Counted from the stretch's first letter, positions 7,517-25,399 are shown. The stretch: DNA of 43,136 bases from Chloroflexota bacterium (GCA_030611015.1 JAUWQP010000002.1:1-43136); one strand, 5' to 3'. Numbers and translations: made by a program. The notes: generated by a model from the letters alone, not told the origin.

Positions 7517-7819
7517 ATGGTGATGGAAAGGGTAGAAAAGGCGCTTGGCCTCCCCAAGCTCTCCGATCTTACCAAAACAATGGAGAAATTCCCCGACGAG
7601 AAGCAGCTCAAGGCAATCAAGCAGGTCCTTAGCATGGCCGAGCGAGTCTCTCAGAGTGCCCCAGAACTTGACCAGGTCGTCACGCTCATTAAAGAGATTA
7701 ACTCGATGCCTATTGAGAAGCTAGAAAAGTTGGAGAAGTTGCTAAAGCGCATCGAGGGGATAATGAAGAAGGCACCCGACGAGCTTGTGAGCTTCCTGAT
7801 GAGCTTGAAGGAGGAGTGA
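7517..7819 (+). CDS. hypothetical helical protein (100 aa)
   Basis: ORF 7370..7819 trimmed to the ATG at 7517 behind AAGGAGG. The longer version would overlap the SDR gene. Confidence 0.6.
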   Translation: MVMERVEKALGLPKLSDLTKTMEKFPDEKQLKAIKQVLSMAERVSQSAPELDQVVTLIKEINSMPIEKLEKLEKLLKRIEGIMKKAPDELVSFLMSLKEE

Positions 7820-7820
7820 G

Positions 7821-8027
7821 ATGCTTGACCCCGGGACGGGAGGCATTCTATTCGTTGTTGGAGGTATAGCGACTGTCGCAACCTTTACTCTCTTCAAGAC
7901 TGCCGAAGAAGCAGGCCCAAAGCTCACTATAGGTGATTTGAGACCTTGCTTACCATGGGAGGGGTTACCCCTGCCACGGTTCTTCTATACCAAGCCAGAA
8001 CTACTGGAGGAATTGAGAAGGAGGTAA
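7821..8027 (+). CDS. small membrane protein with C-terminal GLPLPRFF motif
   Basis: One hydrophobic helix (ILFVVGGIATVATFTLF). Starts 1 nt after the upstream stop. Carries the shared PLPR motif. Confidence 0.6.
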   Translation: MLDPGTGGILFVVGGIATVATFTLFKTAEEAGPKLTIGDLRPCLPWEGLPLPRFFYTKPELLEELRRR

Positions 8028-8033
8028 ATTATT

Positions 8034-8258
8034 ATGCCAGGACAAAATGGAATGGGTCCCAGAGGACAAGGACCAATGACAGGCCGAGGTCTAGGTTATT
8101 GTGTCCGACCAATACCCTTCATAAATCCGAACCCACAGGTAAATCCAAGTATGCCCTTGGTGTCACCAACACCATCTTATCCCTGCGGTCGCGGAAGAGG
8201 ATTACCACCGTGCGGTGGTGGGAGAGGATTTGGCAGAGGTTTTGGCCGGAGAAGATAG
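8034..8258 (+). CDS. DUF5320-like Gly/Arg-rich protein
   Basis: AAGGAGG SD. The N-terminus MPGQNGMGPRGQGPMTGRGLGYC and the GRGRG...GRGFGRGFGRRR tail match my recollection of the DUF5320 family. Preferred over the overlapping frame 7946..8266. Confidence 0.6.
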   Translation: MPGQNGMGPRGQGPMTGRGLGYCVRPIPFINPNPQVNPSMPLVSPTPSYPCGRGRGLPPCGGGRGFGRGFGRRR

Positions 8259-8283
8259 TAAACTGATAAAGGAGGAAATAATC

Positions 8284-8523
8284 ATGCCACTCGGTGTTCC
8301 CAGAACAGAAGCTGAAAGAGCCAAAAGACACGCAGAAATCTATGGTGAGGGCGAGCTGCCCCCAGCAGCCAGAAAGATGCTTGGGCCGGTAATGGAGACA
8401 CTCCCGGAGATAATCTTCGCAAATTTACCAGCCCCACCTATTGGACCTGATGGCAAGTTCCAGCTGCCACTACCTCGCTGGCTAATAGTCAAAATGAGAG
8501 GCGCTGGCCGACGCTTAAGCTAA
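8284..8523 (+). CDS. small protein with C-terminal QLPLPRWL motif
   Basis: ATG at 8284 behind AAAGGAGG. Carries the shared PLPR motif near the C-terminus. Confidence 0.55.
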   Translation: MPLGVPRTEAERAKRHAEIYGEGELPPAARKMLGPVMETLPEIIFANLPAPPIGPDGKFQLPLPRWLIVKMRGAGRRLS

Positions 8524-8546
8524 TATGAGACGCTAGGAGGAGATAA

Positions 8547-8888
8547 TTGAATACTTCTATTCCCAGCCTGCTTATCACTTCCATCAGCAAAGCCGCAGCC
8601 AATGCTACTATCTCACCGGGTACACTTCAGCCGTGGGTCAATGACATAAATAGGCGTGTAGCCGAAGAGGGTAAATTCCCCAAGCCAGCCGTAGCCTATA
8701 TACCATTTTCTCCGCCGCCAGTATTCTGGGATTATAAGTGCCGGAAGTGCCGTTTCTGGCAGGGGCCAGACTCCTGCACAGTAGTAGATGGCAAAATATC
8801 GCCGGGGGGTTGGTGCGCTATCTGGTTACCCCCGGACTCTTATAAGCCCTTTACCTGGCCTAATGAGCTTATGAGAGGTGACTGGTAA
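8547..8888 (+). CDS. HiPIP-like Cys-motif protein (possible 4Fe-4S binding)
   Basis: TTG start behind AGGAGGAG. CRKCRFWQGPDSCTVVDGKISPGGWCAIW has C-x2-C-x8-C-x12-C with the GWC hallmark of high-potential iron-sulfur proteins. Confidence 0.5.
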   Translation: MNTSIPSLLITSISKAAANATISPGTLQPWVNDINRRVAEEGKFPKPAVAYIPFSPPPVFWDYKCRKCRFWQGPDSCTVVDGKISPGGWCAIWLPPDSYKPFTWPNELMRGDW

Positions 8889-9874
8889 TGCCTGAACCTA
8901 AGACTTTGGGACGGGTAGATTGGATGCCCCGCTTGAAAATCTGGCGTGTTATCCGGTATAAAGGCGCAGCCGATATTCCGGCAGGCGATTATCCTACAAA
9001 GAAAGAAGCGGAAGATGCTTTGCGAGAACTTGTAGCTAGAGGCAATCCGGGCGATATAAAGGTCACTCCAGAGGTTACGATGATCTCAGCGAAGCTGGCA
9101 ACAATTGACTTACCTAATGTAAAGGTTTCTGGCAGTTACGCTACCGGAAGTGCTACACCAAAGAGCGATATAGATTTACTCATTGGTATCTCTAATGCTG
9201 AATGGGATAAAGTAACTTTGTATGATTTTCCAGATACAATAAAGAAATTGTATAGCACTTTACCAGAAGATAAGATGACTATTCATCTTTACAAATTGTC
9301 AGAGCCCAATAAATTGTGGCATTTCCAGAGACCTAGAGTAGAAGGAGGCAAACATTTTTCAGGTGTATTCCTTCCAGTGGATTATTCACAGGAAATGACA
9401 CAGGGATTGTGGGATAAGGCAATCAAACCTACTCTAATCCCCAAAGCCAGTGGTAATCCAGAGGTAGTTCTAAACCGAGATAGACGACTCTCAAGAGTTT
9501 CTTACAATGATGCCTATCAAGCTTGGGATGTAGGTATATTTATAAAAGAACCAAGGTATGGTGGCGGTTTTAAGTATGGGAGTAGAGTCCTTAGGAGATC
9601 CTTTGACACCAAAGATACGGCTCAGGCTTGGGTGGATGAGTTTATGAGTCTGGAGTATGGCGAAGTACCAAAAGAGGCCACAGGAGGTAATCCAATGCCA
9701 AAGACAGAAACACAGAGAATAGCATTCCACGAGCGGATATTCGGCAAGGGGTCAATACCGCCCCTTGAGAGGCTAAGGAGAGGGCAAACAGCTAACGAGC
9801 TTATGCCAATGTCGCCAGAAGAGGGACCTCCGTTGCCTAGAGCATTGGGTATTCGCTGGTTTTGGAAAAAATGA
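8888..9874 (+). CDS. Pol-beta-superfamily nucleotidyltransferase-domain protein with C-terminal PPLPRALGIRWFWKK
   Basis: VSGSYATGSATPKSDIDLLIGI fits the GS-x10-D-x-D NTase motif. TAATG overlap with the upstream gene. Confidence 0.65.
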   Translation: MPEPKTLGRVDWMPRLKIWRVIRYKGAADIPAGDYPTKKEAEDALRELVARGNPGDIKVTPEVTMISAKLATIDLPNVKVSGSYATGSATPKSDIDLLIGISNAEWDKVTLYDFPDTIKKLYSTLPEDKMTIHLYKLSEPNKLWHFQRPRVEGGKHFSGVFLPVDYSQEMTQGLWDKAIKPTLIPKASGNPEVVLNRDRRLSRVSYNDAYQAWDVGIFIKEPRYGGGFKYGSRVLRRSFDTKDTAQAWVDEFMSLEYGEVPKEATGGNPMPKTETQRIAFHERIFGKGSIPPLERLRRGQTANELMPMSPEEGPPLPRALGIRWFWKK

Positions 9875-9881
9875 AGTGCTT
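9857..9881. repeat. left copy of the direct repeat flanking the endonuclease gene (TGGTTTTGGAAAAAATGAAGTGCTT)
   Basis: About 21 of 25 positions match 10764-10787, with one 1-nt indel. It spans the stop of 8888..9874 and the start of 9876..10781. Confidence 0.6.
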
Positions 9882-10781
9882 ATTGAGATATTGCCAAGGA
9901 TAATTGAACTCTACTTTAAACAGGAATATTCAATTAAACAAGTAGCGATAACTTTAGGCACTTCTGAAACCTCCACACAACGTATTCTTAAAAAAGCAGG
10001 TTATAAGCTAAGAAGTCCTAGTGAAGCTACGAAGTTAGCCTTTAATAAAGGAAGAGCTATCCGTAATCATAGCCCCAAGACATTAGAGCATAAGAGAAAG
10101 CTATCTGTAGCACAAACCCAATACTTATTTGAACACGACCATCAATTTCTAGGCAGGCATCATAGTACAGCAACAAAAACAAAATTAAAGAGGCGGCAGG
10201 TATCCCTTGAAACTAGAGTTAAATTAAGTGCTAGTTGTAAAGATAGGCCAAGTTCTATGCTCGGTAAGCACCACTCAGAAGAATCTAAAACCAAAATGAG
10301 CCAGACTAGGAAGAAGATGTATGAAAATCCAACATTTAGAGCTGAGATGCTAAAAGTTTTGAAGGAGTGGAGTTCTCGCCCAGAGGTAATTGAAAAACGC
10401 AAACTTGCCATGGCTAGGCGTGTCAGAGATCCTATAGAACTAAGCAAGATGCTGAGTAGCCGGAGGCCAACGGATTTAGAAGCAAAATTGCTTGCTGTAA
10501 TAGAGAAATACCACTTACCCTATAAATATACTGGTGATGGAAGCTTTCTTATTGGCAGACTGAATCCTGATTTTGTTAATACCAACAGTGAGAAGATAGC
10601 CATTGAGGTTTTTGGGGGACACTGGCATCAGGATAAAACTGACTCTATACGAAGTGAGGATGGTAGAAGGAAGATTTTAAGGGAATACGGATGGGAACTT
10701 GTTGTTATCTGGGGTGATGAACTAAAATCAATGCTAGAAGAGGCAATAGTTGAGAAAATAAGGTGGCCTTGGAAAAAGTGA
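9876..10781 (+). CDS. free-standing homing-endonuclease-like protein (HTH + NUMOD3 repeats + Vsr/DUF559-like PD-(D/E)xK domain)
   Basis: Repeated GRHHS..TK.K / GKHHSEESKTKMS NUMOD3-type motifs. The C-terminus NPDF...IAIEVFGGHWH...ELVVIW resembles Vsr/DUF559 nuclease folds. Confidence 0.65.
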   Translation: MLIEILPRIIELYFKQEYSIKQVAITLGTSETSTQRILKKAGYKLRSPSEATKLAFNKGRAIRNHSPKTLEHKRKLSVAQTQYLFEHDHQFLGRHHSTATKTKLKRRQVSLETRVKLSASCKDRPSSMLGKHHSEESKTKMSQTRKKMYENPTFRAEMLKVLKEWSSRPEVIEKRKLAMARRVRDPIELSKMLSSRRPTDLEAKLLAVIEKYHLPYKYTGDGSFLIGRLNPDFVNTNSEKIAIEVFGGHWHQDKTDSIRSEDGRRKILREYGWELVVIWGDELKSMLEEAIVEKIRWPWKK

Positions 10782-10787
10782 ATGCTT
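10764..10787. repeat. right copy of the direct repeat flanking the endonuclease gene (TGGCCTTGGAAAAAGTGAATGCTT)
   Basis: Matches 9857-9881. It spans the stop of the endonuclease gene and the start of 10782..11147. Confidence 0.6.
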
Positions 10788-11147
10788 CTGCTACGAGAAG
10801 TCGACAAACCAAAGAGCCTGGGTGAGAAGATATCGGAGTACCTTGCCAGACCTCCTCAGCCTATTCTCAAGTTTTATGGTGATTTCAGCACTGAGCTGGC
10901 CAATGGCAAGAAGTACCTGCTCTTTGCGGTAAGAAACGGGTTACCCCTCCCCCTCGTCTACGGAATATACATCAAGGCTTCTTATGACTCCCTCACCGAC
11001 TACATTGAAAAAACCGACCATATCGGTCCGTTCAGCACTGATAACTGGAGGCTGACTCTTGACACCACCGCCCCCGCTGTGATAGAAATTAGAGTAGGGC
11101 TAGTCCCCTTTGAAATTATGACCGATAGGACTAAAATTGCTATTTAG
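10782..11147 (+). CDS. hypothetical protein (121 aa)
   Basis: The ATG abuts the upstream TGA. No motif recognised. Confidence 0.55.
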   Translation: MLLLREVDKPKSLGEKISEYLARPPQPILKFYGDFSTELANGKKYLLFAVRNGLPLPLVYGIYIKASYDSLTDYIEKTDHIGPFSTDNWRLTLDTTAPAVIEIRVGLVPFEIMTDRTKIAI

Positions 11148-11159
11148 GGGGTAAGATAA

Positions 11160-11378
11160 ATGGGGCTAATTCATTCGACAGAGGAGTTAAAAGGATGGCC
11201 CGAGGAGAAGCTATCAACCGTAGATAAAGCTAGAGTTGCACTAGGTAATGTCATCGAAGACCCAAAGTATCTTATCCGAGGGGACCCTATACCCACAATT
11301 ATATTTGGACCACCAATATTGCTAGTTGGAGCTGTAGCGGAGCTTGCATCTCGTGGCATAAGGGAGGTTCTCGGATGA
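11160..11378 (+). CDS. hypothetical small protein with a hydrophobic C-terminal segment
   Basis: ATG behind GGGGGTAAG. ATGA overlap with the next gene. Confidence 0.5.
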   Translation: MGLIHSTEELKGWPEEKLSTVDKARVALGNVIEDPKYLIRGDPIPTIIFGPPILLVGAVAELASRGIREVLG

Positions 11379-11740
11379 TTAAGTTACCTAAACTACCAGG
11401 GCAAAAGGAGTCCCCGAAACTATGGCCTCCAACGTTTCCTGAGACCACCATTCCTACGCCCTTTGGTTCTGTTTCCCTTCCTGAGTATAAACTAGGGCTA
11501 CCCAAATTGCCTTCTCTTGATAGCAGAACCCGAAGTGCTATGCTCCATGCCATCGCTATTGATGCCTCAATGTTGCCTGGAACGATTCCCTTGGTGGGGG
11601 ATGTGGTTGCTGATGTGGTAGAAGACTTGCACGCTGCTGAATTGCGGAAAATACTCACCTCCGAACAGTACGATCGGTTTTTAATTGAAGACAAGGTAGC
11701 CCCAGCGACAATAGCCATGATGCGGGCACTGACAAAATAG
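11375..11740 (+). CDS. hypothetical Pro-rich protein (121 aa)
   Basis: Coupled start (ATGA overlap). LPKLP repeats. Confidence 0.5.
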   Translation: MIKLPKLPGQKESPKLWPPTFPETTIPTPFGSVSLPEYKLGLPKLPSLDSRTRSAMLHAIAIDASMLPGTIPLVGDVVADVVEDLHAAELRKILTSEQYDRFLIEDKVAPATIAMMRALTK

Positions 11741-11776
11741 TCTGCTTGGGTAAAAATCTAAAGAGAGGTAGTTGAA

Positions 11777-12289
11777 ATGCCAGAGCTTGAAATAGATAAT
11801 TTAAAGTTAGAAGATTTCTGGCCAATGTTACCTAATATGGGGCCACCCTTACCACGATTCCTTAATATTTATTGGCCGTGGTATAAAAAGATATATGGGT
11901 TAGCCCAGACCTGCATTGAGGACCCGACAGGTTTCCCAGTTACAATTGACCCCAGCGTTGACCCAAGAAGTGATAAAATCAAAGCTGGGAAGCCAGTAAC
12001 ACTGTGGCAATATCTGCATAATGTCTCAGGAGAGCCAATGCCTTCATGGTCAATAACCATGTCAGTTACTTACCCTGATGGAACAATATTTGACCTTACT
12101 GAGGTTAGAAGAGATATATCAGCTGGTGAGGAATGGGGTTATACCGTATTTTCTCCTTTTATCCCCACCTTCGAGGATATTTACTCGGGAGATATCACAA
12201 AGCGCACTTACACTGTTAACGTTCAATTACTAATCGAGGGGCAGGTAGCAGATGAGCTCTCTCTCAAGCTACTAGCCCAAGTACCCTAA
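11777..12289 (+). CDS. hypothetical protein with N-terminal GPPLPRFLNIYWPWYKK motif
   Basis: ATG behind GAGAGGTAG. The full PLPR..W.WKK motif is at aa 21-38. Confidence 0.6.
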   Translation: MPELEIDNLKLEDFWPMLPNMGPPLPRFLNIYWPWYKKIYGLAQTCIEDPTGFPVTIDPSVDPRSDKIKAGKPVTLWQYLHNVSGEPMPSWSITMSVTYPDGTIFDLTEVRRDISAGEEWGYTVFSPFIPTFEDIYSGDITKRTYTVNVQLLIEGQVADELSLKLLAQVP

Positions 12290-12302
12290 GGAGAATGGTA
12301 GC

Positions 12303-12722
12303 ATGGCAGAACTTGAAGAGCTGGTAAAGATAGAGATAACCAAGCCCCTGCCTGAGATTGGCGGCATCGGTGTAACCTACAAGATTGAGGGCACGGTCAA
12401 GATGTTTGACGTCGTTGGTGCTCCCCCCTGGGTCTATGCCGAGGTGAGACGGAAGGAGTGGTGGAAGCCAGAAATCATTGAAGAGGTCAGCTATGAAAGA
12501 GGCTTCCCCATACCAGTAACCGGAAGCTTCAGCATCAATTTCAAGCCCGAAAAGGAAAGCGATTACGAAGTTACTGTTGTCGCAACACCTGCGCCGCTGT
12601 CTCTCCCCGTCGTTGGTGTGTTCCCAATCACCGGCAAAAGCGCTATGATGAAAGTAAAGGTAGAGAAATTGACTGAAGAGTTTACTAATCTTAAAATCGT
12701 ATCATACGCTAAAGTAGCGTAG
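12303..12722 (+). CDS. paralogue 1 of a tandem beta-rich protein family (C-terminus NLKIVSYAKVA)
   Basis: Shares its C-terminal peptide with 12735..13142. SD AAGGAG. Confidence 0.6.
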   Translation: MAELEELVKIEITKPLPEIGGIGVTYKIEGTVKMFDVVGAPPWVYAEVRRKEWWKPEIIEEVSYERGFPIPVTGSFSINFKPEKESDYEVTVVATPAPLSLPVVGVFPITGKSAMMKVKVEKLTEEFTNLKIVSYAKVA

Positions 12723-12734
12723 CCGGAGGTTAAA

Positions 12735-13142
12735 ATGGCAGTACGAGAAGTAAAGCTAGCACAGCTACCGGAGGTAATAACAGTAAGCCCAGGCGATACC
12801 ATACTTGTAAACAGTTCATTTAACTATATTGGGCCACCAGTTGACCTAGACCTCTACACCGCGATATGGAAGAAGGGTCTGATAGACCCACATGTTCCGA
12901 TCGCCAGTGGCAAAAGAGCATTTAGTATACCCGAAACTGTTCCTCCTCCGGGGATGAATTATACTTTTGGTGTCGAGATGGAAGTGCCTTTAGGAGAGGG
13001 TGGCTTCTTTGGTCTCTTTACCAGGATTTCGTCTATCCCTGGACCGGACATATTCTCCCCTTACTACGAAAATCTTATAGAGATTGTTGGTGCAGTGCCC
13101 GCATTTAGCAATCTGGAAATTGTAAGCTATGCTAAGGTTTAG
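12735..13142 (+). CDS. paralogue 2 of the tandem family (PGPDIFSPYYENLIEIV...NLEIVSYAKV)
   Basis: Clear similarity to 13143..13820 at the N-terminus (KLAQLPEVI / NLAIPPEVL; F.YIGP) and at GPDIFSP.YEN.IEIV. Its C-terminus is shared with 12303..12722. Confidence 0.65.
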   Translation: MAVREVKLAQLPEVITVSPGDTILVNSSFNYIGPPVDLDLYTAIWKKGLIDPHVPIASGKRAFSIPETVPPPGMNYTFGVEMEVPLGEGGFFGLFTRISSIPGPDIFSPYYENLIEIVGAVPAFSNLEIVSYAKV

Positions 13143-13820
13143 GTGGTGACAATTAAAGAGCTTAATCTAGCTATCCCACCAGAGGTATTAAAACTCAAGG
13201 TGGGTGAGATTTGTCGGATTTTAGTCTACTTTGACTATATAGGGCCAGCTATCTCGGGAAAGCTCTATGCTGCCATAGGCAGAGTGGGAATACTTGGCTT
13301 TGACGAGATTGTCAATGCGTCTTCGGATCTCAACGTTCCCGCTACAGCTACTAAAACAAAATATCAGGCACCTGTTAACATTTACATTTCATCAGCGATG
13401 AAAGTAGCTTCTGACTATGATATGTATGCCAAGATAATAGGTATTACCGGGCCTGATATCTTTTCTCCAACCTATGAGAACATTATAGAGATTGTTAGTC
13501 CACTCGCAGTCGAAGTCAAGCTTAAGAACGCACCTACTGCGGGTGAGCAGTGGTATCTCATGATTAGCGACCAAGCTAGGACACAAACTAGAATCGTTAC
13601 TGATGTCCCCATAACTCAGGCAATCACATTTGATAATGTGCCCCAAGACTGGCTTCCTCTGCCATTCTACATATTGATTTACAAGGCCGTAACAAGAGAA
13701 ACTGTAGCCATATATCAGTCCTGGGACTCTACTTTTGCTGGTTACATAAAAGGAGTCTATATTCCTTCCTTCGGGTCATACTACTTCAATTGCTCGACTA
13801 AACTGTTTGAGAAAATATAA
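13143..13820 (+). CDS. paralogue 3 of the tandem family with an extra C-terminal domain
   Basis: GTG start right after the upstream TAG. TGPDIFSPTYENIIEIV matches paralogue 2. Confidence 0.65.
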   Translation: MVTIKELNLAIPPEVLKLKVGEICRILVYFDYIGPAISGKLYAAIGRVGILGFDEIVNASSDLNVPATATKTKYQAPVNIYISSAMKVASDYDMYAKIIGITGPDIFSPTYENIIEIVSPLAVEVKLKNAPTAGEQWYLMISDQARTQTRIVTDVPITQAITFDNVPQDWLPLPFYILIYKAVTRETVAIYQSWDSTFAGYIKGVYIPSFGSYYFNCSTKLFEKI

Positions 13821-13839
13821 ACTGAGGCGGTGAGTAATC

Positions 13840-14106
13840 TTGGCTAGTTCGAAAGAATGGTGGCAGCAATATCAAGAAGCATTACGCCGTGGCGATAAGG
13901 CAGCGGCCGCTGATGCTTTTAAGAGCTATTTGGAAGCTAAAAAGGCTGAGGGGAAAGGTGGCTCTAAACCAACTCTAGTTAATTTGAGCAGCAAAGCTAA
14001 AGATTACCCGAATGCTGTGCCTTTGGAGGATATCCCTCGCCTTATGCAAGAGAAACCTGAGTTTTTTGACCTGATGAAACGCGTGGTGACCAAGGAGAAG
14101 AGCTAG
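13840..14106 (+). CDS. hypothetical small charged protein (88 aa)
   Basis: TTG start about 9 nt after GAGGCGG. No alternative in-frame ATG near the start. Confidence 0.45.
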   Translation: MASSKEWWQQYQEALRRGDKAAAADAFKSYLEAKKAEGKGGSKPTLVNLSSKAKDYPNAVPLEDIPRLMQEKPEFFDLMKRVVTKEKS

Positions 14107-14222
14107 TGCCTAGACGTGCTACTAGAACCAGTTTTAGGAAAGGACAGCCTAGTGCTTTTAAAGGTAGGCGCCATAAAGTGAAATTACCGATAAAATACGG
14201 CAGTTCTTTAGGAGGTGATTAA
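14106..14222 (+). CDS. possible 38-aa highly basic peptide (VPRRATRTSFRKGQPSAFKGRRHKVKL...)
   Basis: GTG overlaps the upstream TAG (TAGTG) with AAGGAG 9 nt upstream. Below the ORF-track size cut-off, so speculative. Confidence 0.25.
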   Translation: MPRRATRTSFRKGQPSAFKGRRHKVKLPIKYGSSLGGD

Positions 14223-16515: not shown

Positions 16516-16525
16516 GGAGGGAGTT

Positions 16526-17686: not shown

Positions 17687-17738
17687 TGCCAGTGGGTGCT
17701 TTAGCATCTGCTGAGACCTAACATAGGAGGTGTTAGAG

Positions 17739-18650
17739 ATGGGAGCAGGATTTAGATGGGTTAAATTTATCTACGCGTGGTGCAAGGCTTTTAGCACACA
17801 AATTCTGGGGGCCATCAAGGCTAGCGTAATGGGAGGGGGTACCACCTACTTCGTTGAAGGTAATACCGGCCTCGACACCAACAACGGTCTCACCCGGGAG
17901 GCGCCGTTACTGACGATAGCCCACGCCCTGGATCTGTGCGTAGCCGGTAACGACGACACTATCATCGTTCTGGACCACTACCAGGAGACCTTCCCAATCA
18001 CTGTAAGCAAGGCGAAGGTACATATCATCGGGGTCAATGTAGGTCAGCCAATGGTATGGTTAACCGCTGCCCTCGATACCGCCATCTTCGAAATTGAAGC
18101 GGATAACGTCGAGATTGCGGGCTTTGAGTTCGGTGCTGGAGCAACCCATGCCGCAATCGAGTTTACCGATCTTGTCACCGAAAGGGGTTACGGCCGTATT
18201 CATGACTGTGCATTCGGATGGATGCAGGCGGGGCAGGATGGAATTAGGGTGCCAGCGACCGCCGACGCTGCGGAGACCATCATCGAGAAGTGCTTCTTTG
18301 GTAATAACCTGACTCGTGATGGCATCCGCATCGAGCATAACATGACCCGTGGGATAATTCAGAATAACATCTTCCGTTCAGTGACGGGTGTAGGCATCAA
18401 TGTTCTGGGGCAGATGGCTTTGGGGATTCTCAAAGGCAACAAGTTCAAGCTTCCTGCGAACAACGCCGGAGGAGCTATCACACTGAGTGCAGCAGCCGAC
18501 GTCGCTGGTGAAATATATATTGTGGACAACGATGCTAACTTTGGGAATACCACTATGGTTGCGATACCATGGGTGGTAACTGGTGGGTCTACCATCGGTT
18601 GCACATGGGATAACAATAGGCGAGATGGTGCGGTAGTTTCGCCAGCGTAA
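17739..18650 (+). CDS. right-handed parallel beta-helix protein (pectate-lyase-fold; spike/depolymerase-like)
   Basis: ATG behind AGGAGG. The N-terminal cap motif is YFVEGNTGLDTNNGLTREAPLLTIAHAL. Repeated NN.F/GN.F-type PbH1-like turns are present (NNIFRSVTGVGINV, GNKFKL, DNDANFGN). Confidence 0.65.
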   Translation: MGAGFRWVKFIYAWCKAFSTQILGAIKASVMGGGTTYFVEGNTGLDTNNGLTREAPLLTIAHALDLCVAGNDDTIIVLDHYQETFPITVSKAKVHIIGVNVGQPMVWLTAALDTAIFEIEADNVEIAGFEFGAGATHAAIEFTDLVTERGYGRIHDCAFGWMQAGQDGIRVPATADAAETIIEKCFFGNNLTRDGIRIEHNMTRGIIQNNIFRSVTGVGINVLGQMALGILKGNKFKLPANNAGGAITLSAAADVAGEIYIVDNDANFGNTTMVAIPWVVTGGSTIGCTWDNNRRDGAVVSPA

Positions 18651-18676
18651 CCTTAGTAGCAAACTGAATAGTAAAC

Positions 18677-18747: not shown

Positions 18748-19371
18748 ATGCTGGAACTCAAACCTATGCCCGAGGCGACTGTTACGCCCGGGGTCCCAAA
18801 ACTTCTCCAGGAGGGGTTCTATGTGAGGTTCACCGACCAGTGGCCTCTCACATTACCCCACGTCAAGGGTAAGACCTTTCAGATTGAAAGGACCAACCAA
18901 GTCCCCTACGACATAACCCGCATAATTCCAGGTGGGCATTATGTAGATATTGACCTTTCCAATTCTGCAGGTGGGGAGAACATCTACCCTGAGAACACCA
19001 AGACCCTCTATGAGACGCTCATCGGATTTAAACCTGGTAATTATTTAGTCCACTTCTATATTCCCGCTGGTGAGTATGTCCACCGGCTTGAGCAGGCAGG
19101 GATGGTACCCAATGTTGCCTCAGCTACTAGACGCTATCTTGGTGCCCGCAAGCCCGAAGACAGCCCCTACGATGACAAGAGGATATTCACGTACTCAGTG
19201 AAGGATCTTGAACCACTTAGCCTGCGGCTTCTGGTCGATAATGGGGTAGCCTGGGAGAAGATGGTTTTGGGGCTAATTGTAAATAAGTGTTACCTGAAGG
19301 AGATAACACCAACGCCTGAGCAACTTGCCAGAGCCAAAAAAATTGATTACTACACTGAATTGAGATGGTGA
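18748..19371 (+). CDS. hypothetical beta-rich structural-like protein (207 aa)
   Basis: GAAGGAG SD. Composition suggests a beta-sandwich. No motif recognised. Confidence 0.55.
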   Translation: MLELKPMPEATVTPGVPKLLQEGFYVRFTDQWPLTLPHVKGKTFQIERTNQVPYDITRIIPGGHYVDIDLSNSAGGENIYPENTKTLYETLIGFKPGNYLVHFYIPAGEYVHRLEQAGMVPNVASATRRYLGARKPEDSPYDDKRIFTYSVKDLEPLSLRLLVDNGVAWEKMVLGLIVNKCYLKEITPTPEQLARAKKIDYYTELRW

Positions 19372-19398
19372 GCTTAACACAGTTATAGGGAGGTAAAC

Positions 19399-19773
19399 AT
19401 GCCTAGTATAGTGGTAGATATGGGTACGTTGACAACCGAACCTTTAGTAACCGAGAAGCGTAATGCTAAGGTTAAACCCAGCCTGATCATGGTGGATAAC
19501 GTCGATGCCCTTGCCGACTCTGAGCTGACTTTCCAGGACATCTTCAACACAGACGCCAGCATAGTAGCCGCGACCGGTGCAGCGGTAGCTGCAGTAGCAG
19601 GACAAGTAGTTAACCGCCTGAGAATAAATGTCTCAATGGCTGCCTGCGTCTCCATAAGAGATGAGCTGGAAGACATTAAGTTTTTAGGTGGAGCTCAGGT
19701 CCTAAGAGAGGAGGCCGGGGCACCGGCCCTGGATGGCGGTTGCCATGTGACACTCGGCTATGATTTAGAATAG
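19399..19773 (+). CDS. hypothetical protein (124 aa)
   Basis: ATG behind GGGAGG. Confidence 0.55.
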   Translation: MPSIVVDMGTLTTEPLVTEKRNAKVKPSLIMVDNVDALADSELTFQDIFNTDASIVAATGAAVAAVAGQVVNRLRINVSMAACVSIRDELEDIKFLGGAQVLREEAGAPALDGGCHVTLGYDLE

Positions 19774-19791
19774 CTCTAAAGGGGGGAATTG

Positions 19792-20268
19792 ATGGTATAT
19801 CCAGTGAAAAAATCCCTCTTCGAGGGGTTAACCACTATTGATGAGCGTGTGGACTTTGTTCACAACCAAGTCCTCTCTGTTCAGCTTGCGCTGAATCAAC
19901 TATTAGAAAAGGAAGGTGTTCCAACTATGGCCGTAGTCACTAGAGAGGTTAATTTAAGAGCAAGCGTCCAGCCACTAACCGGTACCAAGGTGACCAAACC
20001 CTCACCTCTCACCGGGAAGATAGTCCAACTTATCCCACATTGGCCTGATGGCGCAGATGCCCTTGTAGATGTGGCTGTGGGGCACAAGGATACCTGGATC
20101 CTCCCCAACGAGGTTGACACTTTTATCGCCTTGAATGATGCTACCCCGGTTCTCACTGTTAATGAGTCCATCGAGAAAGGCGAAGAAGTCTGGATGATAT
20201 TGAGGAACACCGATGGGGCAAACCCCCATGCAATAAGCTGCACTGTAACAATCATAGGAGTACCCTAA
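19792..20268 (+). CDS. hypothetical beta-rich protein (158 aa)
   Basis: ATG at 19792, 5 nt after AAAGGGGGG. Confidence 0.55.
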   Translation: MVYPVKKSLFEGLTTIDERVDFVHNQVLSVQLALNQLLEKEGVPTMAVVTREVNLRASVQPLTGTKVTKPSPLTGKIVQLIPHWPDGADALVDVAVGHKDTWILPNEVDTFIALNDATPVLTVNESIEKGEEVWMILRNTDGANPHAISCTVTIIGVP

Positions 20269-21143
20269 TGCCAAAGATATTTACCGTTGAGCAAAGAGGC
20301 GTAGGCAAGCCTGATTACTCCAAGGAGATTTCCTTAGGGCAAATTAGACCGGGGCTTACCTTAAAATACAATCAAGGACTAAAGATTTGTGGACGGGCTT
20401 TTTCTGCCGTCAACACTGGCACGCATACCGCTGCTCCCCACGCAACCATTATGACCGATGCTGCCGCCTACTTCACTCCCAATACGCTGATAGGATTAAC
20501 CATAGTAAATGTTACCGATGGCTGCTCCGGCGTCATCTTTGCCAATACCGAGACCACGGTTACTGTAGCTGCTTTGACTGGTGGCATCACCAATCAGTGG
20601 AATACCGGTGATGCTTACAATATACCATCGCCATTTAGTCATGTTACATTGCCCCTTGCAGCAGGTGCGACAGCTCATTTTATTGATTCCGAGACTGGCC
20701 TGGAGCTGCCCTTTACTGTCCCTGCAGGCTATACCCTATCTAGTATAAGCGCTGGTTTCTCTTTTACCCAAGATGCAATAATGTGGGGCTATTACGAAGG
20801 CTTCCTGCGTAATACTATTGGGGCACCCATTGGCGGCAATATGTTTTATGAATCAGAAGTTGTTACATGGGGGACGTCCCTTCTTGACCCAACTGCGGAA
20901 AGTGCTCACCCGGTCGATTTCCAGATAATCAATAAGGGGGGTGCTGATTTGGAGGGTGGTGTTGTTATTTTTGGCATACTTGAAGCGGTGGGGACTCCAC
21001 CATTTCCAACCACTAAGACAGTAAGGTGTAAATTCTGTGACCATAGGGAGACGGTTCCGCGGGAAACAACAAAATGGATATGCCCCAAGTGTGGTAAACT
21101 GAATTTCTACTATAACCTGGCTAATTTCAGAGGGACAGTGTGA
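20268..21143 (+). CDS. hypothetical structural-like protein with a C-terminal zinc ribbon (CKFC...CPKC)
   Basis: TAATG-coupled start. The CxxC-x18-CxxC motif lies within the C-terminal ~45 residues. Confidence 0.6.
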   Translation: MPKIFTVEQRGVGKPDYSKEISLGQIRPGLTLKYNQGLKICGRAFSAVNTGTHTAAPHATIMTDAAAYFTPNTLIGLTIVNVTDGCSGVIFANTETTVTVAALTGGITNQWNTGDAYNIPSPFSHVTLPLAAGATAHFIDSETGLELPFTVPAGYTLSSISAGFSFTQDAIMWGYYEGFLRNTIGAPIGGNMFYESEVVTWGTSLLDPTAESAHPVDFQIINKGGADLEGGVVIFGILEAVGTPPFPTTKTVRCKFCDHRETVPRETTKWICPKCGKLNFYYNLANFRGTV

Positions 21144-21201
21144 AAAAAACAATCTTATCGGTTATATTGCCAGAGTCAAGGCGTTTTTAGGAGATAGTTA
21201 A

Positions 21202-21564
21202 ATGCTTGAAGCTGTATTGAGAAAAATATTACAGACCTTCTTTGGTAGTGGCGCCGATATAAGCGAGACCAATCCACTTCCGGTCACCACTGAATATGCC
21301 TTCCCCGGCACGCCATACAGTAACACTGATACAGCCGTTAATGATGACGCCAGGCGTTTTGAGGCTGCTGAACTGAAACTTAGGGATGTTGTGATAAAGG
21401 TTACTGATAATAATCAGTTATTAGGGGATGTCACTGCCCAGAACTTTGAACTGGCTGCCGGCGGGTCTATTGGTATTAGCTTCCTAGATTTGTCTCTATT
21501 CTACTTCCGTAATGCTACCCCCGGGTCAGATGGCACTGTCAGCGTATTTGGGACGAGGTGCTAA
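21202..21564 (+). CDS. hypothetical protein (120 aa)
   Basis: ATG behind AGGAGA. Confidence 0.55.
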   Translation: MLEAVLRKILQTFFGSGADISETNPLPVTTEYAFPGTPYSNTDTAVNDDARRFEAAELKLRDVVIKVTDNNQLLGDVTAQNFELAAGGSIGISFLDLSLFYFRNATPGSDGTVSVFGTRC

Positions 21565-21950
21565 CCGTGAGAGTGATTAGAGAAAACCTGGTAGGCTTAT
21601 TCAAGTTCCTATTCATTCTCCTAGGTATTCTGTTCCCATTCAGGCTAAAAAGGGAGAGACCATCACAGACACGATACAGAAAAGAAACTAGCAGGGAAGA
21701 GCCTGTTAATCATAAATATGCTAGCTTCATTGGCCCCAGTGAGCCTCTCATCCCGACTGAACCCTGCTTCTGCCCTAAATGCCATGTGCTTGTGGCTTCT
21801 TTGAGGCGCACCAAAGAGGGTATCAAGATAATTCAGAATAATAGGGTGCTTGTTACTGTAGGGGGCAACTTTACGACTAGCGAGGGAGGAAAGGTTAGGA
21901 CGGGCTTCCCAATGAAATGCCCTAACGGGCACACGGTGGAGGTGCAATAG
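21558..21950 (+). CDS. membrane-anchored zinc-ribbon protein
   Basis: N-terminal hydrophobic helix (LVGLFKFLFILLGILFPF), then CFCPKCH...CPNGH. The GTG start is uncertain. Confidence 0.45.
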   Translation: MLTVRVIRENLVGLFKFLFILLGILFPFRLKRERPSQTRYRKETSREEPVNHKYASFIGPSEPLIPTEPCFCPKCHVLVASLRRTKEGIKIIQNNRVLVTVGGNFTTSEGGKVRTGFPMKCPNGHTVEVQ

Positions 21951-23776
21951 TGGCTTGGATTAAGGAACTTGGACTATTCCAGACGGCTACTGCCATTGTA
22001 TTGTCTAATGATACCCCGGCAATAGTGAGGGCTCTAGCTAGGGTAGCTAAGGTGGCTCTTGGTGCCCTGATACAAGTGTGTGATGAAGTCGCTGACCAAG
22101 TTGAAATAAATGCCGCCATTAATGCCTTGCCTGTCTATGCAGGTAAAAGACATGGCAGGATTGTTTTCGTAGGTGGAATGTTCCGCACTTCTGATACTAT
22201 CAACGTTGATGGTGACATTACCCTTGAAGGGCAGATGATGCCTATACCTACTTATGACTCGGGAACTACCATACGGAATGAGAACATAGCCGGGGCAGAT
22301 GCCTTTCACCTCTTGGCTCCTGGTGGCTTTCCTGACCACGTGATAAAAGTTGTCCTCAGGAATATGTGTATTAGAGGCAATGCTGCCTCTGGGCACGGAG
22401 TATATGCTGATAAGGTTCACTTCACCCTCTATAACATAGTGCTTTTGTCTCATGGTGGAGATGGAATATATGTAGAGGCTTGCTGGGGTGGGAGTATTAT
22501 AGAGAGTGACATCAGAAATAACGAGGGTGCTGGAGTTTCTTATAATAGGGATGCTGTTACTGGGCATACCTGTACCTGGCAGCTCATAGACCACTGTAAT
22601 ATCGGCCATAACCACACAAATGCTGACATCTACATGCCTGACTACACAGCGGAGCTGATAGTCCGAGCCTGTTACTTTGAGCATGGTGATGACATTGGTG
22701 CGATACACCACATAGAGATAGGTGGAGGCTCGAATGTTACAATATGTGATGGCTGCCGGCTCGCTGCCAATTACAATATTGCCGCTACTCCTATCCATAT
22801 TAGTAACGGTGGCCGTGTCAGGATTACGGATAACTTTATAGGTGGCGATGCAGCCAGGTGCATAGAAATAGCCATTGGAGTATCTACTGACATTATCGGG
22901 AACGACTTTATTGCGGGCTGGACAGAGTGGTGTATCCACTGTTCTGTCACTGGCGGCTCGGTGCTGATTGATGATAACTACTTCCCTCTTGACCAGGACA
23001 CATACCCTGATTGCATCATAGCAAGGCTTGTGGCTGATAACGCAATCTTCACTAATAATAGGGCAATAGCCACAGGTACAGGCAACAACAGGACTGCGGT
23101 GCACCTCATCAATGTTGACAACTGCGTTGTAAGTGATAATATCCTCCTTGGTCCATTCGATAATACCTGGATACGACTGGATCCTGGGAATTACTGCACA
23201 TTAGAAGGTAACACTATTGAGGGTGCCAGTGGACTAGGCATCTACTTGGCCTCAACAAGTTCTTACAACACAGTAGTAGGCGATATCTGCCGTGGCAACA
23301 ACATCGGGATTGAGCTGGGTGCAGACTCACATCATAACACAGCAAAGAGCAATAGCTGTCCGAACAATGCTACAGTAGGGATTAGTAACAATGGTACGGA
23401 TAACATAACTGATGTAGCTGCCCACTCAATTGCCCTTGACCTCTCTGGAGGAGCAACGGACATAGAGGTCTACCATGCCAAGGTAGCATGCTCCTTCTTT
23501 GGCTACGAGATACTCTATACTGAGGCATCTTCTGTCAATGCTGGTGTCAATGTGAGGATAGGCAGGTATCAGGATGGGGTAGCCTTAGATGATGATTATT
23601 TTGATGTTTCTGTTTCTGAGGTCAGTAAGAACAAGGGCTACTCAAAGCAGTTCGATCGTGCTGATTTGACCCAATCAGTGATTGCTGCTGGAGACACAAT
23701 AACAGCTGGTATTGCTGGTGGGAAGGTAGGTACTGGTGAGGTATTACTCATCCTACAGATAGCGGAGACGGGGTGA
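21950..23776 (+). CDS. large right-handed beta-helix repeat protein (608 aa; receptor-binding/depolymerase-like)
   Basis: GTG overlaps the upstream TAG, with GGAGGTG 6 nt upstream. Many PbH1-like repeats are present (IRGNAASGHGVYAD, NNEGAGVSY, GNTIEGASGLGIYL, GNNIGIEL, NNATVGISNNG). Confidence 0.75.
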   Translation: MAWIKELGLFQTATAIVLSNDTPAIVRALARVAKVALGALIQVCDEVADQVEINAAINALPVYAGKRHGRIVFVGGMFRTSDTINVDGDITLEGQMMPIPTYDSGTTIRNENIAGADAFHLLAPGGFPDHVIKVVLRNMCIRGNAASGHGVYADKVHFTLYNIVLLSHGGDGIYVEACWGGSIIESDIRNNEGAGVSYNRDAVTGHTCTWQLIDHCNIGHNHTNADIYMPDYTAELIVRACYFEHGDDIGAIHHIEIGGGSNVTICDGCRLAANYNIAATPIHISNGGRVRITDNFIGGDAARCIEIAIGVSTDIIGNDFIAGWTEWCIHCSVTGGSVLIDDNYFPLDQDTYPDCIIARLVADNAIFTNNRAIATGTGNNRTAVHLINVDNCVVSDNILLGPFDNTWIRLDPGNYCTLEGNTIEGASGLGIYLASTSSYNTVVGDICRGNNIGIELGADSHHNTAKSNSCPNNATVGISNNGTDNITDVAAHSIALDLSGGATDIEVYHAKVACSFFGYEILYTEASSVNAGVNVRIGRYQDGVALDDDYFDVSVSEVSKNKGYSKQFDRADLTQSVIAAGDTITAGIAGGKVGTGEVLLILQIAETG

Positions 23777-24147
23777 TGGGTAGGATAGTATATGTAGACA
23801 ATGCAGGAAATCTAGTCCCGCCCTCAGGTCTTGGGTTCACTTTCACAGAGCTAGACGGTACTGATACCCATTCAGTGGGGGTTGCCGCCACTTTTGAAGA
23901 TTGGGATTTGGCAGCTATTATTGGTGCAGGAGCTAAATATGTTAAGATTGCCATTTACAACGCAACGGGTGGCTTTCTTACCTTTGGCCACCGGAAGGAT
24001 GGCAGTGGGCTAGTTAGGACAGATGTAATACAGGCTGCTTCCAACCGAGATGGTGTATGTGAATGTGACGCAAGTAGGGTTATTGAGTGCTATGACAGCA
24101 GTGCAACCTTTGACCTAATTTTCAGGATAACGGGTTATTGGAGCTAG
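23773..24147 (+). CDS. hypothetical beta-rich protein (124 aa)
   Basis: ATGA-type overlap with the upstream gene. Confidence 0.55.
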   Translation: MMGRIVYVDNAGNLVPPSGLGFTFTELDGTDTHSVGVAATFEDWDLAAIIGAGAKYVKIAIYNATGGFLTFGHRKDGSGLVRTDVIQAASNRDGVCECDASRVIECYDSSATFDLIFRITGYWS

Positions 24148-24149
24148 GA

Positions 24150-24455
24150 ATGACCAAAGAAGCGATAGACCAGAAGTATCTTGAGCTACACAGCCAGCTG
24201 GGGCTTGAGTTCTTTGATATTGTTGACGAGGATTTACCTACCCAACATAGGGTATTGAAAGCTGGTAAGTCTATTGGTAAGTTCAACTTAGCGCATGGCG
24301 AGTTATGGCGAAACCACGAAGCTGAGTTGATTGCGGGTGGCTTTATGGAAGCACCACCTCCACCTCTAGAACCTGTTCCTCCCTTCGAACCTCCGCCAGG
24401 GGTAAGTGAGAAAGTTGGCTATATTGAGCAGTTCCTCAAAAGGTTATATGGGTGA
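24150..24455 (+). CDS. hypothetical protein with a Pro-rich C-terminal half
   Basis: Trimmed to the ATG at 24150, just after the upstream TAG. Confidence 0.5.
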   Translation: MTKEAIDQKYLELHSQLGLEFFDIVDEDLPTQHRVLKAGKSIGKFNLAHGELWRNHEAELIAGGFMEAPPPPLEPVPPFEPPPGVSEKVGYIEQFLKRLYG

Positions 24456-24466
24456 GGAGATAATCA

Positions 24467-25051
24467 GTGGCAGCTGGTGTAATCTATAAGGACAATGCTG
24501 GTAGACAAGGGAAACCAGTCCTCCTTAAGGGTGAGGGGCTGGTCTATATTGAGCTTCGTCCCGACCTGGACTTTGAGACCATCAGGGGCAATGTTGGCAT
24601 CCCGACGCTAGAAACACAAGGGATATTCCGTGGTTTCAGCTTACCCCTATGGGTTGCTGATAATAACGAGGAGCTGTTTGCCACTATCTGTGTGCCTAGC
24701 AGGTGGGATGGTGCCAGCGATATCTATGTCCATCTCGATTGCTGGCTGGCTTTGGCAGAGGTCAACAAAAACTTCAATCTACAGGTGACATGGGAGCACT
24801 ATAATCCAGGGACGGATGCTATCCCAGCTACATCAGCTAATGTTGAGGTAGAGACAGTAGCTAATGCAGCTCAGTTCCAGAGCTATACGGTCGAATTTAC
24901 GCTGGCCTACGGTGACTTGTTGGCTGACGACATTATAGGTCTGCGGATACGAAGGATTGCCGCAGTAGGAGCCGAGTGTGTTGGAGAAATAGTAATTAAC
25001 CACTATGGAGTAATATTCAGAAGGGATAAACTGGGGGTGGCAACACCATAA
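24467..25051 (+). CDS. hypothetical beta-sandwich-like protein (194 aa)
   Basis: GTG start behind GAGGAG. Confidence 0.55.
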   Translation: MAAGVIYKDNAGRQGKPVLLKGEGLVYIELRPDLDFETIRGNVGIPTLETQGIFRGFSLPLWVADNNEELFATICVPSRWDGASDIYVHLDCWLALAEVNKNFNLQVTWEHYNPGTDAIPATSANVEVETVANAAQFQSYTVEFTLAYGDLLADDIIGLRIRRIAAVGAECVGEIVINHYGVIFRRDKLGVATP

Positions 25052-25063
25052 GAGAGAGGTTAG

Positions 25064-25399
25064 ATGAAATTGCTTAATTCGCCAATAAAGTTTATGGTAT
25101 ATGCAGTCTCTCACGCAATCCGGCATCCACGGACACCGATAACCTACTGTTATTGTTCTTCCTGTAAGCTGCGCTTTAACGGAATAGAGTGTCCCCAGTG
25201 CCGTTCTAAGGTTGGTCATTCACCTGAGAATACGCAGGAGTCACCTATTCCCTGGTGGGGTTCCATAGGGGTTATTATTCTTGGAATTACTTGCTGGATT
25301 TTAGGTGCTTCAATACCAGTAGCAGGGTTGGACGAAGCTGGCAGGGCTTTGGTCTACATCCCCTTGGGGAACATCTTCGGGATGAGCCTAAGGCGCTAA
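25064..25399 (+). CDS. zinc-ribbon protein with a C-terminal TM helix (holin-like position)
   Basis: CSSC...CPQC followed by WWGSIGVIILGITCWILGA. It is the last gene of the plus block and converges on the amidase-like gene. Confidence 0.5.
   Translation: MKLLNSPIKFMVYAVSHAIRHPRTPITYCYCSSCKLRFNGIECPQCRSKVGHSPENTQESPIPWWGSIGVIILGITCWILGASIPVAGLDEAGRALVYIPLGNIFGMSLRR

Follow-up and report, generated by a model that had tools for sequence, protein, structure and literature searches.

A candidate virion module without known packaging genes in an integrated element of Dehalococcoidales

The stretch examined here (the window) is a whole metagenomic contig of 43,136 nucleotides (nt) from a Chloroflexota bacterium, JAUWQP010000002.1, with no sequence of its own locus left of position 1. 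It belongs to a mobile element of ~44-46 kb that is integrated in a Dehalococcoidales genome, and it contains at 7517-25399 an 18-kb block of 31 open reading frames (ORFs) whose possible role in forming virus particles is the subject of this report. All 31 ORFs lie on the plus strand, nearly all with AGGAGG-type ribosome-binding sites, and ~24 of the 30 junctions overlap or leave a gap of ≤27 nt, in keeping with the roughly 30 co-oriented, coupled ORFs counted in a first-pass annotation of the same DNA. As that annotation also stated, only two block proteins exceed 330 amino acids (aa): the intein-bearing product of 14215-16038 (607 aa) and a beta-helix protein encoded at 21950-23776 (608 aa). 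The true start of the operon lies left of the block, at a ParA/MinD-like ATPase gene (3645-4526).

All 31 block ORFs and all flanking ORFs of the contig were scanned against Pfam and PHROGs, and the window was scanned in six frames for the Walker A motif. We also compared the window with related loci on an 85-kb contig, a contig of 41.4 kb from a Dehalococcoidales metagenome-assembled genome (MAG), its 48.3-kb metagenome twin, and shorter contigs. No ORF of the contig matches a terminase, portal, capsid, scaffold, tail, or tape-measure family. The large terminase (TerL) is missing from the family matches contig-wide and from the left flanks of the relatives, and the block has no Walker A; a portal match is likewise missing from the contig ORFs, the only block ORFs above 330 aa being the intein-bearing putative protease and the beta-helix protein already mentioned. 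The block has no long coiled-coil ORF, and PHROG tail matches are limited to generic N-terminal ones of beta-helix proteins. No FtsK/HerA-superfamily (A32-like) packaging ATPase, the type used by the non-tailed jelly-roll viruses of Helvetiavirae and Bamfordvirae, was matched in the window or in relatives; a Zot/pI-type ATPase was not matched either, and the block has no P-loop. The Walker A scan returned only the D5-like primase-helicase of the right arm (31012-33312) and a chance match within 1868-3109; the ParA/MinD-like ATPase, which lies outside the block, has a deviant Walker A, and apart from these two enzymes neither the window nor the relatives show one. Pfam, PHROGs, and the six-frame scan are thus all silent on the Walker A ATPase, portal, and tape measure that the first-pass annotation had reported missing from the block. 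The complete list of family matches within it is DUF5320, a minimal nucleotidyltransferase, a NUMOD3/Vsr-like endonuclease, a LAGLIDADG intein, and two sets of beta-helix repeats. Hydrophobic segments occur in 4 of the 31 proteins. None of the structural candidates carries a signal peptide, suggesting assembly in the cytoplasm, which counts against a pilus or an S-layer.

The most conserved protein of the block, p259 (16858-17637, plus strand), is the candidate major structural (capsid) protein. At E ≤1e-3 it has 205 homologs, the best 120 at 57-90% identity, from Dehalococcoidales MAGs and from subsurface, groundwater, and marine-sediment metagenomes; one is a UniRef entry filed under "viral metagenome." An exhaustive profile search, clustered at 50% identity, widened the family to a superfamily of 77 clusters that form three main subfamilies. 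By sequence, the p259 family has no match in Pfam, PHROGs, or PDB, and profiles of p259, of the wider superfamily, of the downstream protein p207, and of the spliced protease gave only chance matches to PDB sequences. An AlphaFold2 model of p259 built on a 53-sequence alignment (pLDDT 77, pTM 0.80) has a short helix, a beta-hairpin, and three helices in residues 1-85, a Gly-rich loop at 89-99 that is of low confidence but invariant, and an eight-strand beta-sandwich. Foldseek searches of PDB and BFVD matched it only to jelly-roll-type sandwiches, including CBM35, TNF/C1q heads, influenza hemagglutinin (HA) heads, and Ena3A, with a 121-column C1q-like domain as the best local match (probability 1.0, TM-score 0.53 on the target). 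Capsid chains of HHIV-2 and SH1 appear at E ~0.016 with TM-scores of 0.2-0.4, no better than CBM35, TNF/C1q, or hemagglutinin heads, and neither database yielded an HK97-fold match to the model of p259, the only ORF modeled with an alignment. The first-pass annotation had suggested comparing this product with jelly-roll and HK97 folds, and the outcome favors the former: the fold is predicted from the model to be a single jelly-roll with a helical extension, and its likeness to any one virus family is not significant.

Downstream of p259 and one variable slot lies a conserved core string of four genes, p207, p124, p159, and p291 (18748-21143, plus strand; 62-72% identity to L005, L014, and L017), the last with a C-terminal Zn ribbon. 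Protein p207 (18748-19371) is 28% identical to proteins of the distant loci L021 and L023, where its gene stands one gene after the p259-like gene, so that p207 and p259 occur together even in distant subfamilies (two contigs). The two proteins are not related to each other by hhalign, and a single-sequence AlphaFold2 run on p207 gave an unusable model (pLDDT 36).

Upstream of p259, the ORF at 14215-16038 (plus strand) encodes a putative maturation protease of His-Cys (clan-CD-like) type, 227 aa after splicing, recognized by motif and gene position. In clan CD peptidases (caspase/gingipain/legumain type) the catalytic dyad is a His-Gly and an (Ala/Ser)-Cys, each preceded by a hydrophobic strand. 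Indeed, the spliced product has this arrangement, and its five orthologs share invariant IIIGxGHG and (K)LLSCQ motifs, each after a hydrophobic strand. Neither the spliced protein nor its profile matches C11, C13, C14, or C25 in Pfam, NCBIfam, or PDB sequences. Directly after the invariant GHG motif, the reading frame is interrupted by a 380-aa LAGLIDADG intein (~14410-15549; LAGLIDADG_3, 9.9e-5) that begins with Cys (...GHGSE followed by CYSEDTEIL...) and ends with Asn before Ser (...WSGN followed by STFTGQ). A PHROG intein-bearing family matches its N-terminal splicing region at 3e-9, and the orthologs in relatives, at 216-226 aa, are without an intein; Cys1, the C-terminal Asn then Ser, the endonuclease domain, and the intein-less orthologs together identify the insertion. 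Inteins usually sit in active sites. At the protease position of the distant locus L021 (7400-8851) there is instead an S8 subtilisin, upstream of two small genes and a p259-like gene. This non-orthologous replacement suggests that proteolysis is part of the module's function. Between protease and p259, 16192-16858 (plus strand) encodes two small proteins, one helical (~105 aa) and one Pro-rich (~115-130 aa, ending ...PEVxTRRGM), which are kept in L005, L013, and L015-L017 and replaced in position by 85- and 138-aa proteins in L021. By position, they are scaffold-like candidates.

A second recurrent feature is a common peptide of ~20 residues, P(M/C)xPxEG(P/L)PLPRxLxxxWPW(K/Y)K, near one end of four otherwise unrelated block proteins. 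The carriers are encoded at 7821-8027, 8215-8523, 8888-9874, and 11777-12289, with the peptide at 7971-8027, 8467-8523, 9809-9874, and 11837-11905, respectively; it is C-terminal in the first three and N-terminal in the last. The core motif has these 4 matches against 0.04 expected in shuffled sequences, and the same peptide is found on other small proteins of relatives (L002, L005 with three proteins, L013, and L014 with two). T4 has a capsid targeting sequence and encapsulins have cargo peptides, and by analogy with such tags the shared peptide looks like a docking or targeting tag; alternatively, it could be an interfacial membrane anchor. One carrier is a 328-aa minimal nucleotidyltransferase (8888-9874, plus strand; NTP_transf_2, 3.2e-5) that ends PPLPR...IRWFWKK. 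The small protein encoded at 8215-8523 (plus strand) bears the PLPR docking module at its C terminus and is homologous to the C-terminal 60 aa of the nucleotidyltransferase; its true start is probably the ATG at ~8284. A free-standing homing endonuclease with NUMOD3 and a Vsr/MTES-like nuclease (9876-10781, plus strand; NUMOD3, 1.3e-7) has inserted within the last 27 nt of the nucleotidyltransferase gene; it is absent from relatives and stands outside the particle module. Both ORFs end ...IRW(F/P)WKK* (9848-9874 and 10755-10781), suggesting that the insertion duplicated the 3' end of its target and so kept the C-terminal tag of the host gene intact.

The gene order is kept in relatives: ParA and lipid-type cassette, small proteins, protease, two small proteins, p259, a variable slot, p207, p124, p159, p291, and beta-helix proteins. 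The variable slot of the window (17730-18650, plus strand) encodes a 306-aa right-handed beta-helix protein (Beta_helix, 1.5e-3; PHROG baseplate/tail-fiber N-terminal matches at 9e-9) that is likely a spike or receptor-binding protein; it is not conserved, and relatives have a 169-aa protein or five ~150-aa paralogs in its place. The variable distal part (21202-25399, plus strand) encodes proteins of 120 aa, 130 aa (transmembrane/Zn ribbon), 608 aa (beta-helix), 124, 105, and 194 aa, and finally 111 aa (Zn ribbon/transmembrane), with little or no conservation in relatives, and is likely a host-recognition and exit module. Its 608-aa member (21950-23776) matches NosD at 1.5e-10 and Beta_helix at 3.3e-10, so that of the two beta-helix proteins named in the first-pass annotation this one is well supported and the product of 17730-18650 weakly; PDB sequence searches with both gave nothing informative. 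The Zn-ribbon/transmembrane protein encoded at 25064-25399 is as that annotation described it, whereas the adjoining "amidase" (25388-25972, minus strand) has no Pfam or NCBIfam match. A weak PHROG "enoyl-CoA hydratase-like" match spans the latter gene, whose product is 46% conserved at the same position in L014/L018.

The remaining genes of the block are small. A helical, conserved 100-aa protein and a 68-aa single-transmembrane protein ending in the PLPR peptide come first (7517-8027, plus strand; 64-66% identity to L005 and L014), followed by a 74-aa Gly/Arg/Pro-rich protein of isoelectric point 11.8 (8034-8258, plus strand; Pfam DUF5320, 1.1e-7, above the cut-off), a candidate DNA-condensing protein. 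At 8547-8888 (plus strand) there is a conserved 113-aa protein (74% identity to L005) with a HiPIP-like motif, CxxC...C...GWC, in the pattern CxxC-x9-C-x13-C...GWC (Pfam HIPIP, 0.0026, below the cut-off). Such an Fe-S-like protein is an odd presence in a structural operon; the DUF5320 protein and the Mrp/NUBPL-type ATPase lie close by. Four small conserved proteins of 121, 72 (transmembrane), 121, and 170 aa are encoded at 10782-12289 (plus strand; 61-83% identity to relatives), the 170-aa protein bearing its peptide, PPLPR...WPWYKK, near the N terminus. Next come three tandem beta-rich proteins with a common C-terminal tail, ...NL(K/E)IVSYAKV (12303-13820, plus strand); those encoded at 12735-13142 and 13143-13820 are paralogs (BLASTP, 1.2e-15). 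The L005 ortholog matches Flg_new_2, and in relatives the slot holds a single 280-aa Flg_new_2 protein or, in L018, a 721-aa protein. These are likely surface or decoration proteins, and the differing content of the slot suggests rapid turnover of a surface component. A basic, conserved 88-aa protein (13840-14106, plus strand; 47-69% identity to relatives) precedes the protease.

Upstream of the block, the ParA/MinD-like P-loop ATPase (3645-4526, plus strand) is the first gene of the long plus-strand operon and the sole conserved NTPase before the block; it matches Pfam ParA (NUBPL-type) at 1.3e-32, CbiA, AAA_31, and PHROG ParA-like at 1.6e-13. Its C terminus is basic and amphipathic (KRLKRKIVKGIARRL), and it is syntenic in L005, L010, and L024. 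A lipid-type cassette follows (4527-7476, plus strand), encoding a 147-aa protein with a weak SCP2 match, a 214-aa protein with five transmembrane segments, a 310-aa UbiA-like polytopic protein, and a 308-aa short-chain dehydrogenase/reductase of epimerase-reductase type (Epimerase, 2.5e-24; NAD_binding_4, 2e-16; HpnA/OleD-like matches). Orthologs of the UbiA-like protein in L005, L010, and L018 match PF01040 UbiA. In all relatives seen, the cassette and the block are syntenic (3645-7476 in the window, 15369-20339 in L010, and 1-3758 in L018). Constants of the cassette are the leading ATPase with its basic amphipathic helix end, the five-transmembrane protein, and the UbiA-like protein; further members in relatives are a type III polyketide synthase/FabH-like gene or a B12-radical SAM gene. 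Its product may be a prenylated or long-chain lipid, although an accessory or lysogenic-conversion module is an equally possible reading of the cassette. The first-pass annotation had taken the cassette as fitting a lipid-containing virion; the synteny agrees with this, whereas the varying gene content allows an accessory role just as well. With hydrophobic segments confined to 4 of the 31 block proteins, the idea of a lipid-containing virion amounts to a guess.

The first-pass annotation had cautioned that packaging genes could lie left of the window, and relatives largely remove this caveat. A 50-mer taken from the contig start has exact matches in metagenome contigs and none in viral or genome collections. 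SDBU01003095 is a close relative (98% identity in the first 155 nt and ~85% in the first 866); leftward of the window start, it encodes proteins of 67, 71, and 115 aa, a 291-aa tyrosine recombinase, and two of ~180 aa. The whole left border can be read on the 46.9-kb contig of another relative, from host glycine-reductase and thioredoxin genes through a helix-turn-helix (HTH) gene, a ParB-N6-methylase gene, two small genes, the integrase, 102- and 71-aa genes, and a minus-strand module to ParA. A more distant relative has a longer run of small early genes at this end. The integrase is seen in loci L009 and L024. These flanks contain small genes, the ParB-methylase, the HTH gene, and the tyrosine integrase before host genes begin, with no gene of terminase or portal size or type and no TerL/portal set just outside the window. 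The lack of tailed-phage machinery therefore holds for the whole element. The 67-aa minus-strand ORF (MAQVAGLPVRTLRRMVGIPAHRPSAFNACIGA...; L009, 3551-3778) lies just left of window position 1 and recurs in L002, L003, L010, and L024. Its stretch is more conserved than its neighbors; a conserved noncoding RNA was ruled out here, as variation falls mostly at third codon positions (36, versus 12 and 11 at the other two).

On the right, the minus-strand genes at 25388-41201 form a replication and regulation arm of viral or mobile-genetic-element (MGE) type. They encode a Prim-Pol/D5 primase-helicase (31012-33312; PHROG DNA primase, 6e-88) and a phosphoadenosine phosphosulfate (PAPS) reductase-like protein (1.5e-41), together with an excisionase-type HTH protein and an MmcB-like nuclease. 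This arm also contains an HNH_3 endonuclease (27930-28391), a 159-aa minimal Pol-beta-like protein (28394-28873; DNA_pol_B_thumb, 7.7e-15), and a LAGLIDADG-type endonuclease (28870-29484). The last three genes adjoin one another, and with the intein and the NUMOD3 gene the element has four homing-type endonucleases. A host TRAP-transporter gene, DctP (41999-43075), occupies the right end of the contig. The window ends show no terminal overlap, leaving circularity of the contig unsupported, and no att-like repeat was found to be shared between the integrase side of the relative and the right end of the window. Scans for tRNA and Rfam families in the window and in metagenome loci L002-L004 gave nothing, and tRNA scans of L009, L010, and other relatives gave a single match, a tRNA-Met inside L010. 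A tRNA-like 3' fragment suspected at ~41.45 kb was unsupported on checking, and promoter and terminator scans yielded no more sites than in shuffles.

Taken together, we read the block, with a probability of roughly 55%, as the virion (late, particle-forming) module of a new temperate, non-tailed virus-like lineage with a jelly-roll protein in its shell. This reading draws on the gene layout and ribosome-binding sites, the lack of head, packaging, or tail matches and of signal peptides, and a conserved module order in which the protease has been displaced while the p259-p207 pair was kept. It also draws on the p259 model and fold searches, on a core flanked by variable beta-helix and Ig-like proteins, on the recurrence of the shared peptide beyond chance, and on the p259 family itself, a large and strongly conserved one with nearly all its members in Dehalococcoidales and subsurface metagenomes. 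The replication module that makes up the right arm is of a typical viral/MGE kind, and in relatives the left end runs through an integrase into host genes. There is also a precedent in the non-tailed IME1 viruses of Dehalococcoides, integrated elements of 21-28 kb without tailed-phage hallmarks that have been proposed as non-tailed virus candidates and in which a gene for a pI/Zot-like ATPase precedes those of small hydrophobic SSV1-VP1-like proteins (bioRxiv 10.64898/2026.09.15.751708). The non-tailed part of the first-pass interpretation is supported, with TerL, portal, and tape measure lacking element-wide and no HK97 match to the p259 model. Its membrane-containing, sphaerolipovirus- or tectivirus-like part is not, given the missing FtsK/HerA ATPase, a p259 model without a double jelly-roll, and only four proteins with transmembrane segments.

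Under the virion-module reading, p259, possibly with p207, would assemble a shell in the cytoplasm, aided by the two small scaffold-like proteins. A dedicated protease would then mature the particle, the His-Cys enzyme (intein-split) here and a subtilisin in the distant subfamily, and may cut p259 at the invariant Gly-rich loop (K93/R100/D103) between its halves. The 20-residue peptide, P-x-x-P-x-E-G-P-P-L-P-R-x-L-x-x-x-W-P-W-K-K, would bring unrelated proteins, including the nucleotidyltransferase, to the particle, and the beta-helix proteins would act as spikes. DNA would enter by a route that uses neither a terminase nor an FtsK/HerA ATPase, perhaps with the basic DUF5320 protein condensing it and the ParA/MinD ATPase positioning it. 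More tentatively, we propose as a possible fuller picture a widespread temperate double-stranded DNA (dsDNA) virus lineage of Dehalococcoidales, with distant cousins in other sediment organisms, whose particles are built from jelly-roll p259 and p207, with a recruited cellular-type protease, enzymes loaded by PPLPR...WPWKK, and a ~44-kb genome without a known packaging NTPase (terminase, FtsK/HerA, or pI/Zot).

Several points weigh against a virion module. To our knowledge, no well-studied icosahedral dsDNA virus lacks a packaging NTPase; here, none was found. The jelly-roll match is generic, with full-length TM-scores ≤0.3 and non-viral folds scoring equal to viral capsids, and p259 is the only block protein with a usable structural model. 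The protease assignment comes from motif and position, with no HMM match. Primases of P4/D5 type, integrases, and HNH genes are likewise frequent in integrative elements that are not viral. IMG/VR and GenBank phage records hold no relative: megablast of the block and tblastn of p259 and p207 found no match among GenBank phages, and IMG/VR scans with a 413-aa left-arm protein and with the p259 alignment were empty. The sole pointer to particles is the "viral metagenome" label of one p259 homolog. It may trace back to a groundwater fraction (<0.22 µm, DNase-treated) which, according to its authors, also contained small cells (PMC7940616).

Some of these points would be expected of a non-viral integrative island that builds another assembly, such as a peptide-targeted protein compartment, or that modifies lipids or the cell surface and carries adhesins. 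The whole contig lacks packaging machinery, a shared terminal peptide is also the cargo-loading mode of bacterial protein compartments, the operon combines a lipid-type cassette with an Fe-S-like and a DUF5320 protein, the family is absent from IMG/VR and phage records, and many of the jelly-roll matches are non-viral proteins. We nonetheless consider such an island unlikely. A protease, small proteins, a conserved major protein, and a variable beta-helix/Ig tail follow the usual layout of a virion module, several homing endonucleases and an intein are of a kind enriched in viruses, a p259 homolog is filed under "viral metagenome," and replication and integration modules flank the operon as they do in a provirus. 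The missing motor would also be accounted for if the element were an enveloped pleomorphic or filamentous virus that buds in the manner of IME1, pleolipoviruses, or plasmaviruses, with p259 as nucleoprotein or as matrix or spike protein. Dehalococcoidia, being without peptidoglycan, are already the hosts of proposed budding viruses, upstream, a MinD-like ATPase directed to the membrane is conserved together with the lipid cassette, and the Trp/Lys-rich peptide could anchor at a membrane interface. This is rather improbable in our judgment, since hydrophobic segments occur in only four block proteins, no small hydrophobic major protein stands out, and the pI/Zot-like ATPase that is the hallmark of IME1 is missing; a maturation protease and scaffold-like proteins also suit a proteinaceous shell better, and the cassette varies in the fashion of accessory genes.

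Alternatively, the packaging motor could be supplied from outside, by a co-resident virus serving a helper-dependent satellite that makes its own shell proteins. The lack of an NTPase of its own would follow, and a P4-type primase with an integrase is the classic satellite backbone. We regard this as very unlikely: at ~44 kb, with an 18-kb morphogenesis-like module, the element is far above known satellites, its structural proteins are unrelated to those of any known helper type, and a jelly-roll shell could not use a terminase/portal system. The idea of a tailed phage so divergent that its terminase, portal, and HK97 capsid go undetected is close to refuted. The order of protease, scaffold-like proteins, and major protein is that of an HK97-type head module, and the beta-helix proteins resemble tailspikes, but besides the identified proteins no ORF is as large as a terminase or portal gene, a Walker A is missing from the block, the p259 model has no HK97 match in PDB or BFVD, and the relatives' left flanks have no large genes. 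Moreover, few phage proteins are as easy to detect as TerL, and neither Pfam nor PHROGs gives a match to it.

Virus discovery based on hallmark genes would miss an abundant provirus family of this kind, and the present family is missing from IMG/VR, PHROGs, and GenBank phage records. If the virion-module reading is correct, part of the subsurface virosphere has been systematically overlooked (~200 close p259 homologs and a superfamily of 77 clusters), in the form of a lineage that no existing dsDNA virus realm would cover by its hallmark-gene definition and that current detection pipelines do not see. Dehalococcoidia matter for bioremediation and for carbon cycling in deep sediments, and their envelope is archaeal-like and free of peptidoglycan; a second non-tailed virus type beside IME1 would support the view that envelope type shapes the architectures of infecting viruses. 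A motor-less capsid-like system with a swappable protease and a cargo tag would be a new model of virion evolution, and the peptide tag is potentially engineerable.

Among known viruses, the Sphaerolipoviridae and Matshushitaviridae (Helvetiavirae; SH1, HHIV-2, and Thermus phage P23-77) are likewise non-tailed dsDNA viruses, temperate or provirus-forming, that carry spikes. Their two small beta-sandwich capsid proteins, vertical single jelly-rolls, are encoded side by side; here p259 and p207 form a conserved pair, in which a jelly-roll domain is predicted for p259. HHIV-2 and SH1 capsid chains are among the weak Foldseek matches of p259. Helvetiavirae differ, however, in having an FtsK/HerA packaging ATPase beside the capsid genes, an internal virion membrane, and no known maturation protease; p259 has an extra 90-residue helical N-terminal part and shows no sequence or significant structural similarity to their proteins. 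Tectiliviricetes (PRD1, PM2, Bam35, and autolykiviruses) are also non-tailed and jelly-roll-built, can integrate, and bear vertex spikes. They have a double jelly-roll and an internal membrane, whereas the p259 model is one eight-strand sandwich in which no double jelly-roll is seen, few membrane proteins are encoded, no A32-like ATPase is found, and the genome is 3-4 times that of most bacterial members.

The element shares with HK97-type head modules of Caudoviricetes the order of protease, scaffold-like proteins, and major protein, as well as beta-helix spikes and, by analogy with the capsid targeting sequence of T4, peptide-targeted internal proteins. Unlike in Caudoviricetes, no match to TerL, a portal, a tail tube, or a tape measure was found, and the p259 model shows no HK97 fold. 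From IME1, as described in the preprint, the element is set apart by its size (~44 kb versus 21-28 kb), by a protease-p259-p207 string that the IME1 description does not include, and by the lack of a pI/Zot-like ATPase and small hydrophobic proteins. It nevertheless resembles IME1 in host class, in lacking tailed-phage hallmarks, in a tyrosine recombinase at one end (as seen in relatives), in an archaeal/viral-type primase-helicase and HNH endonucleases, and in a central conserved block of small proteins.

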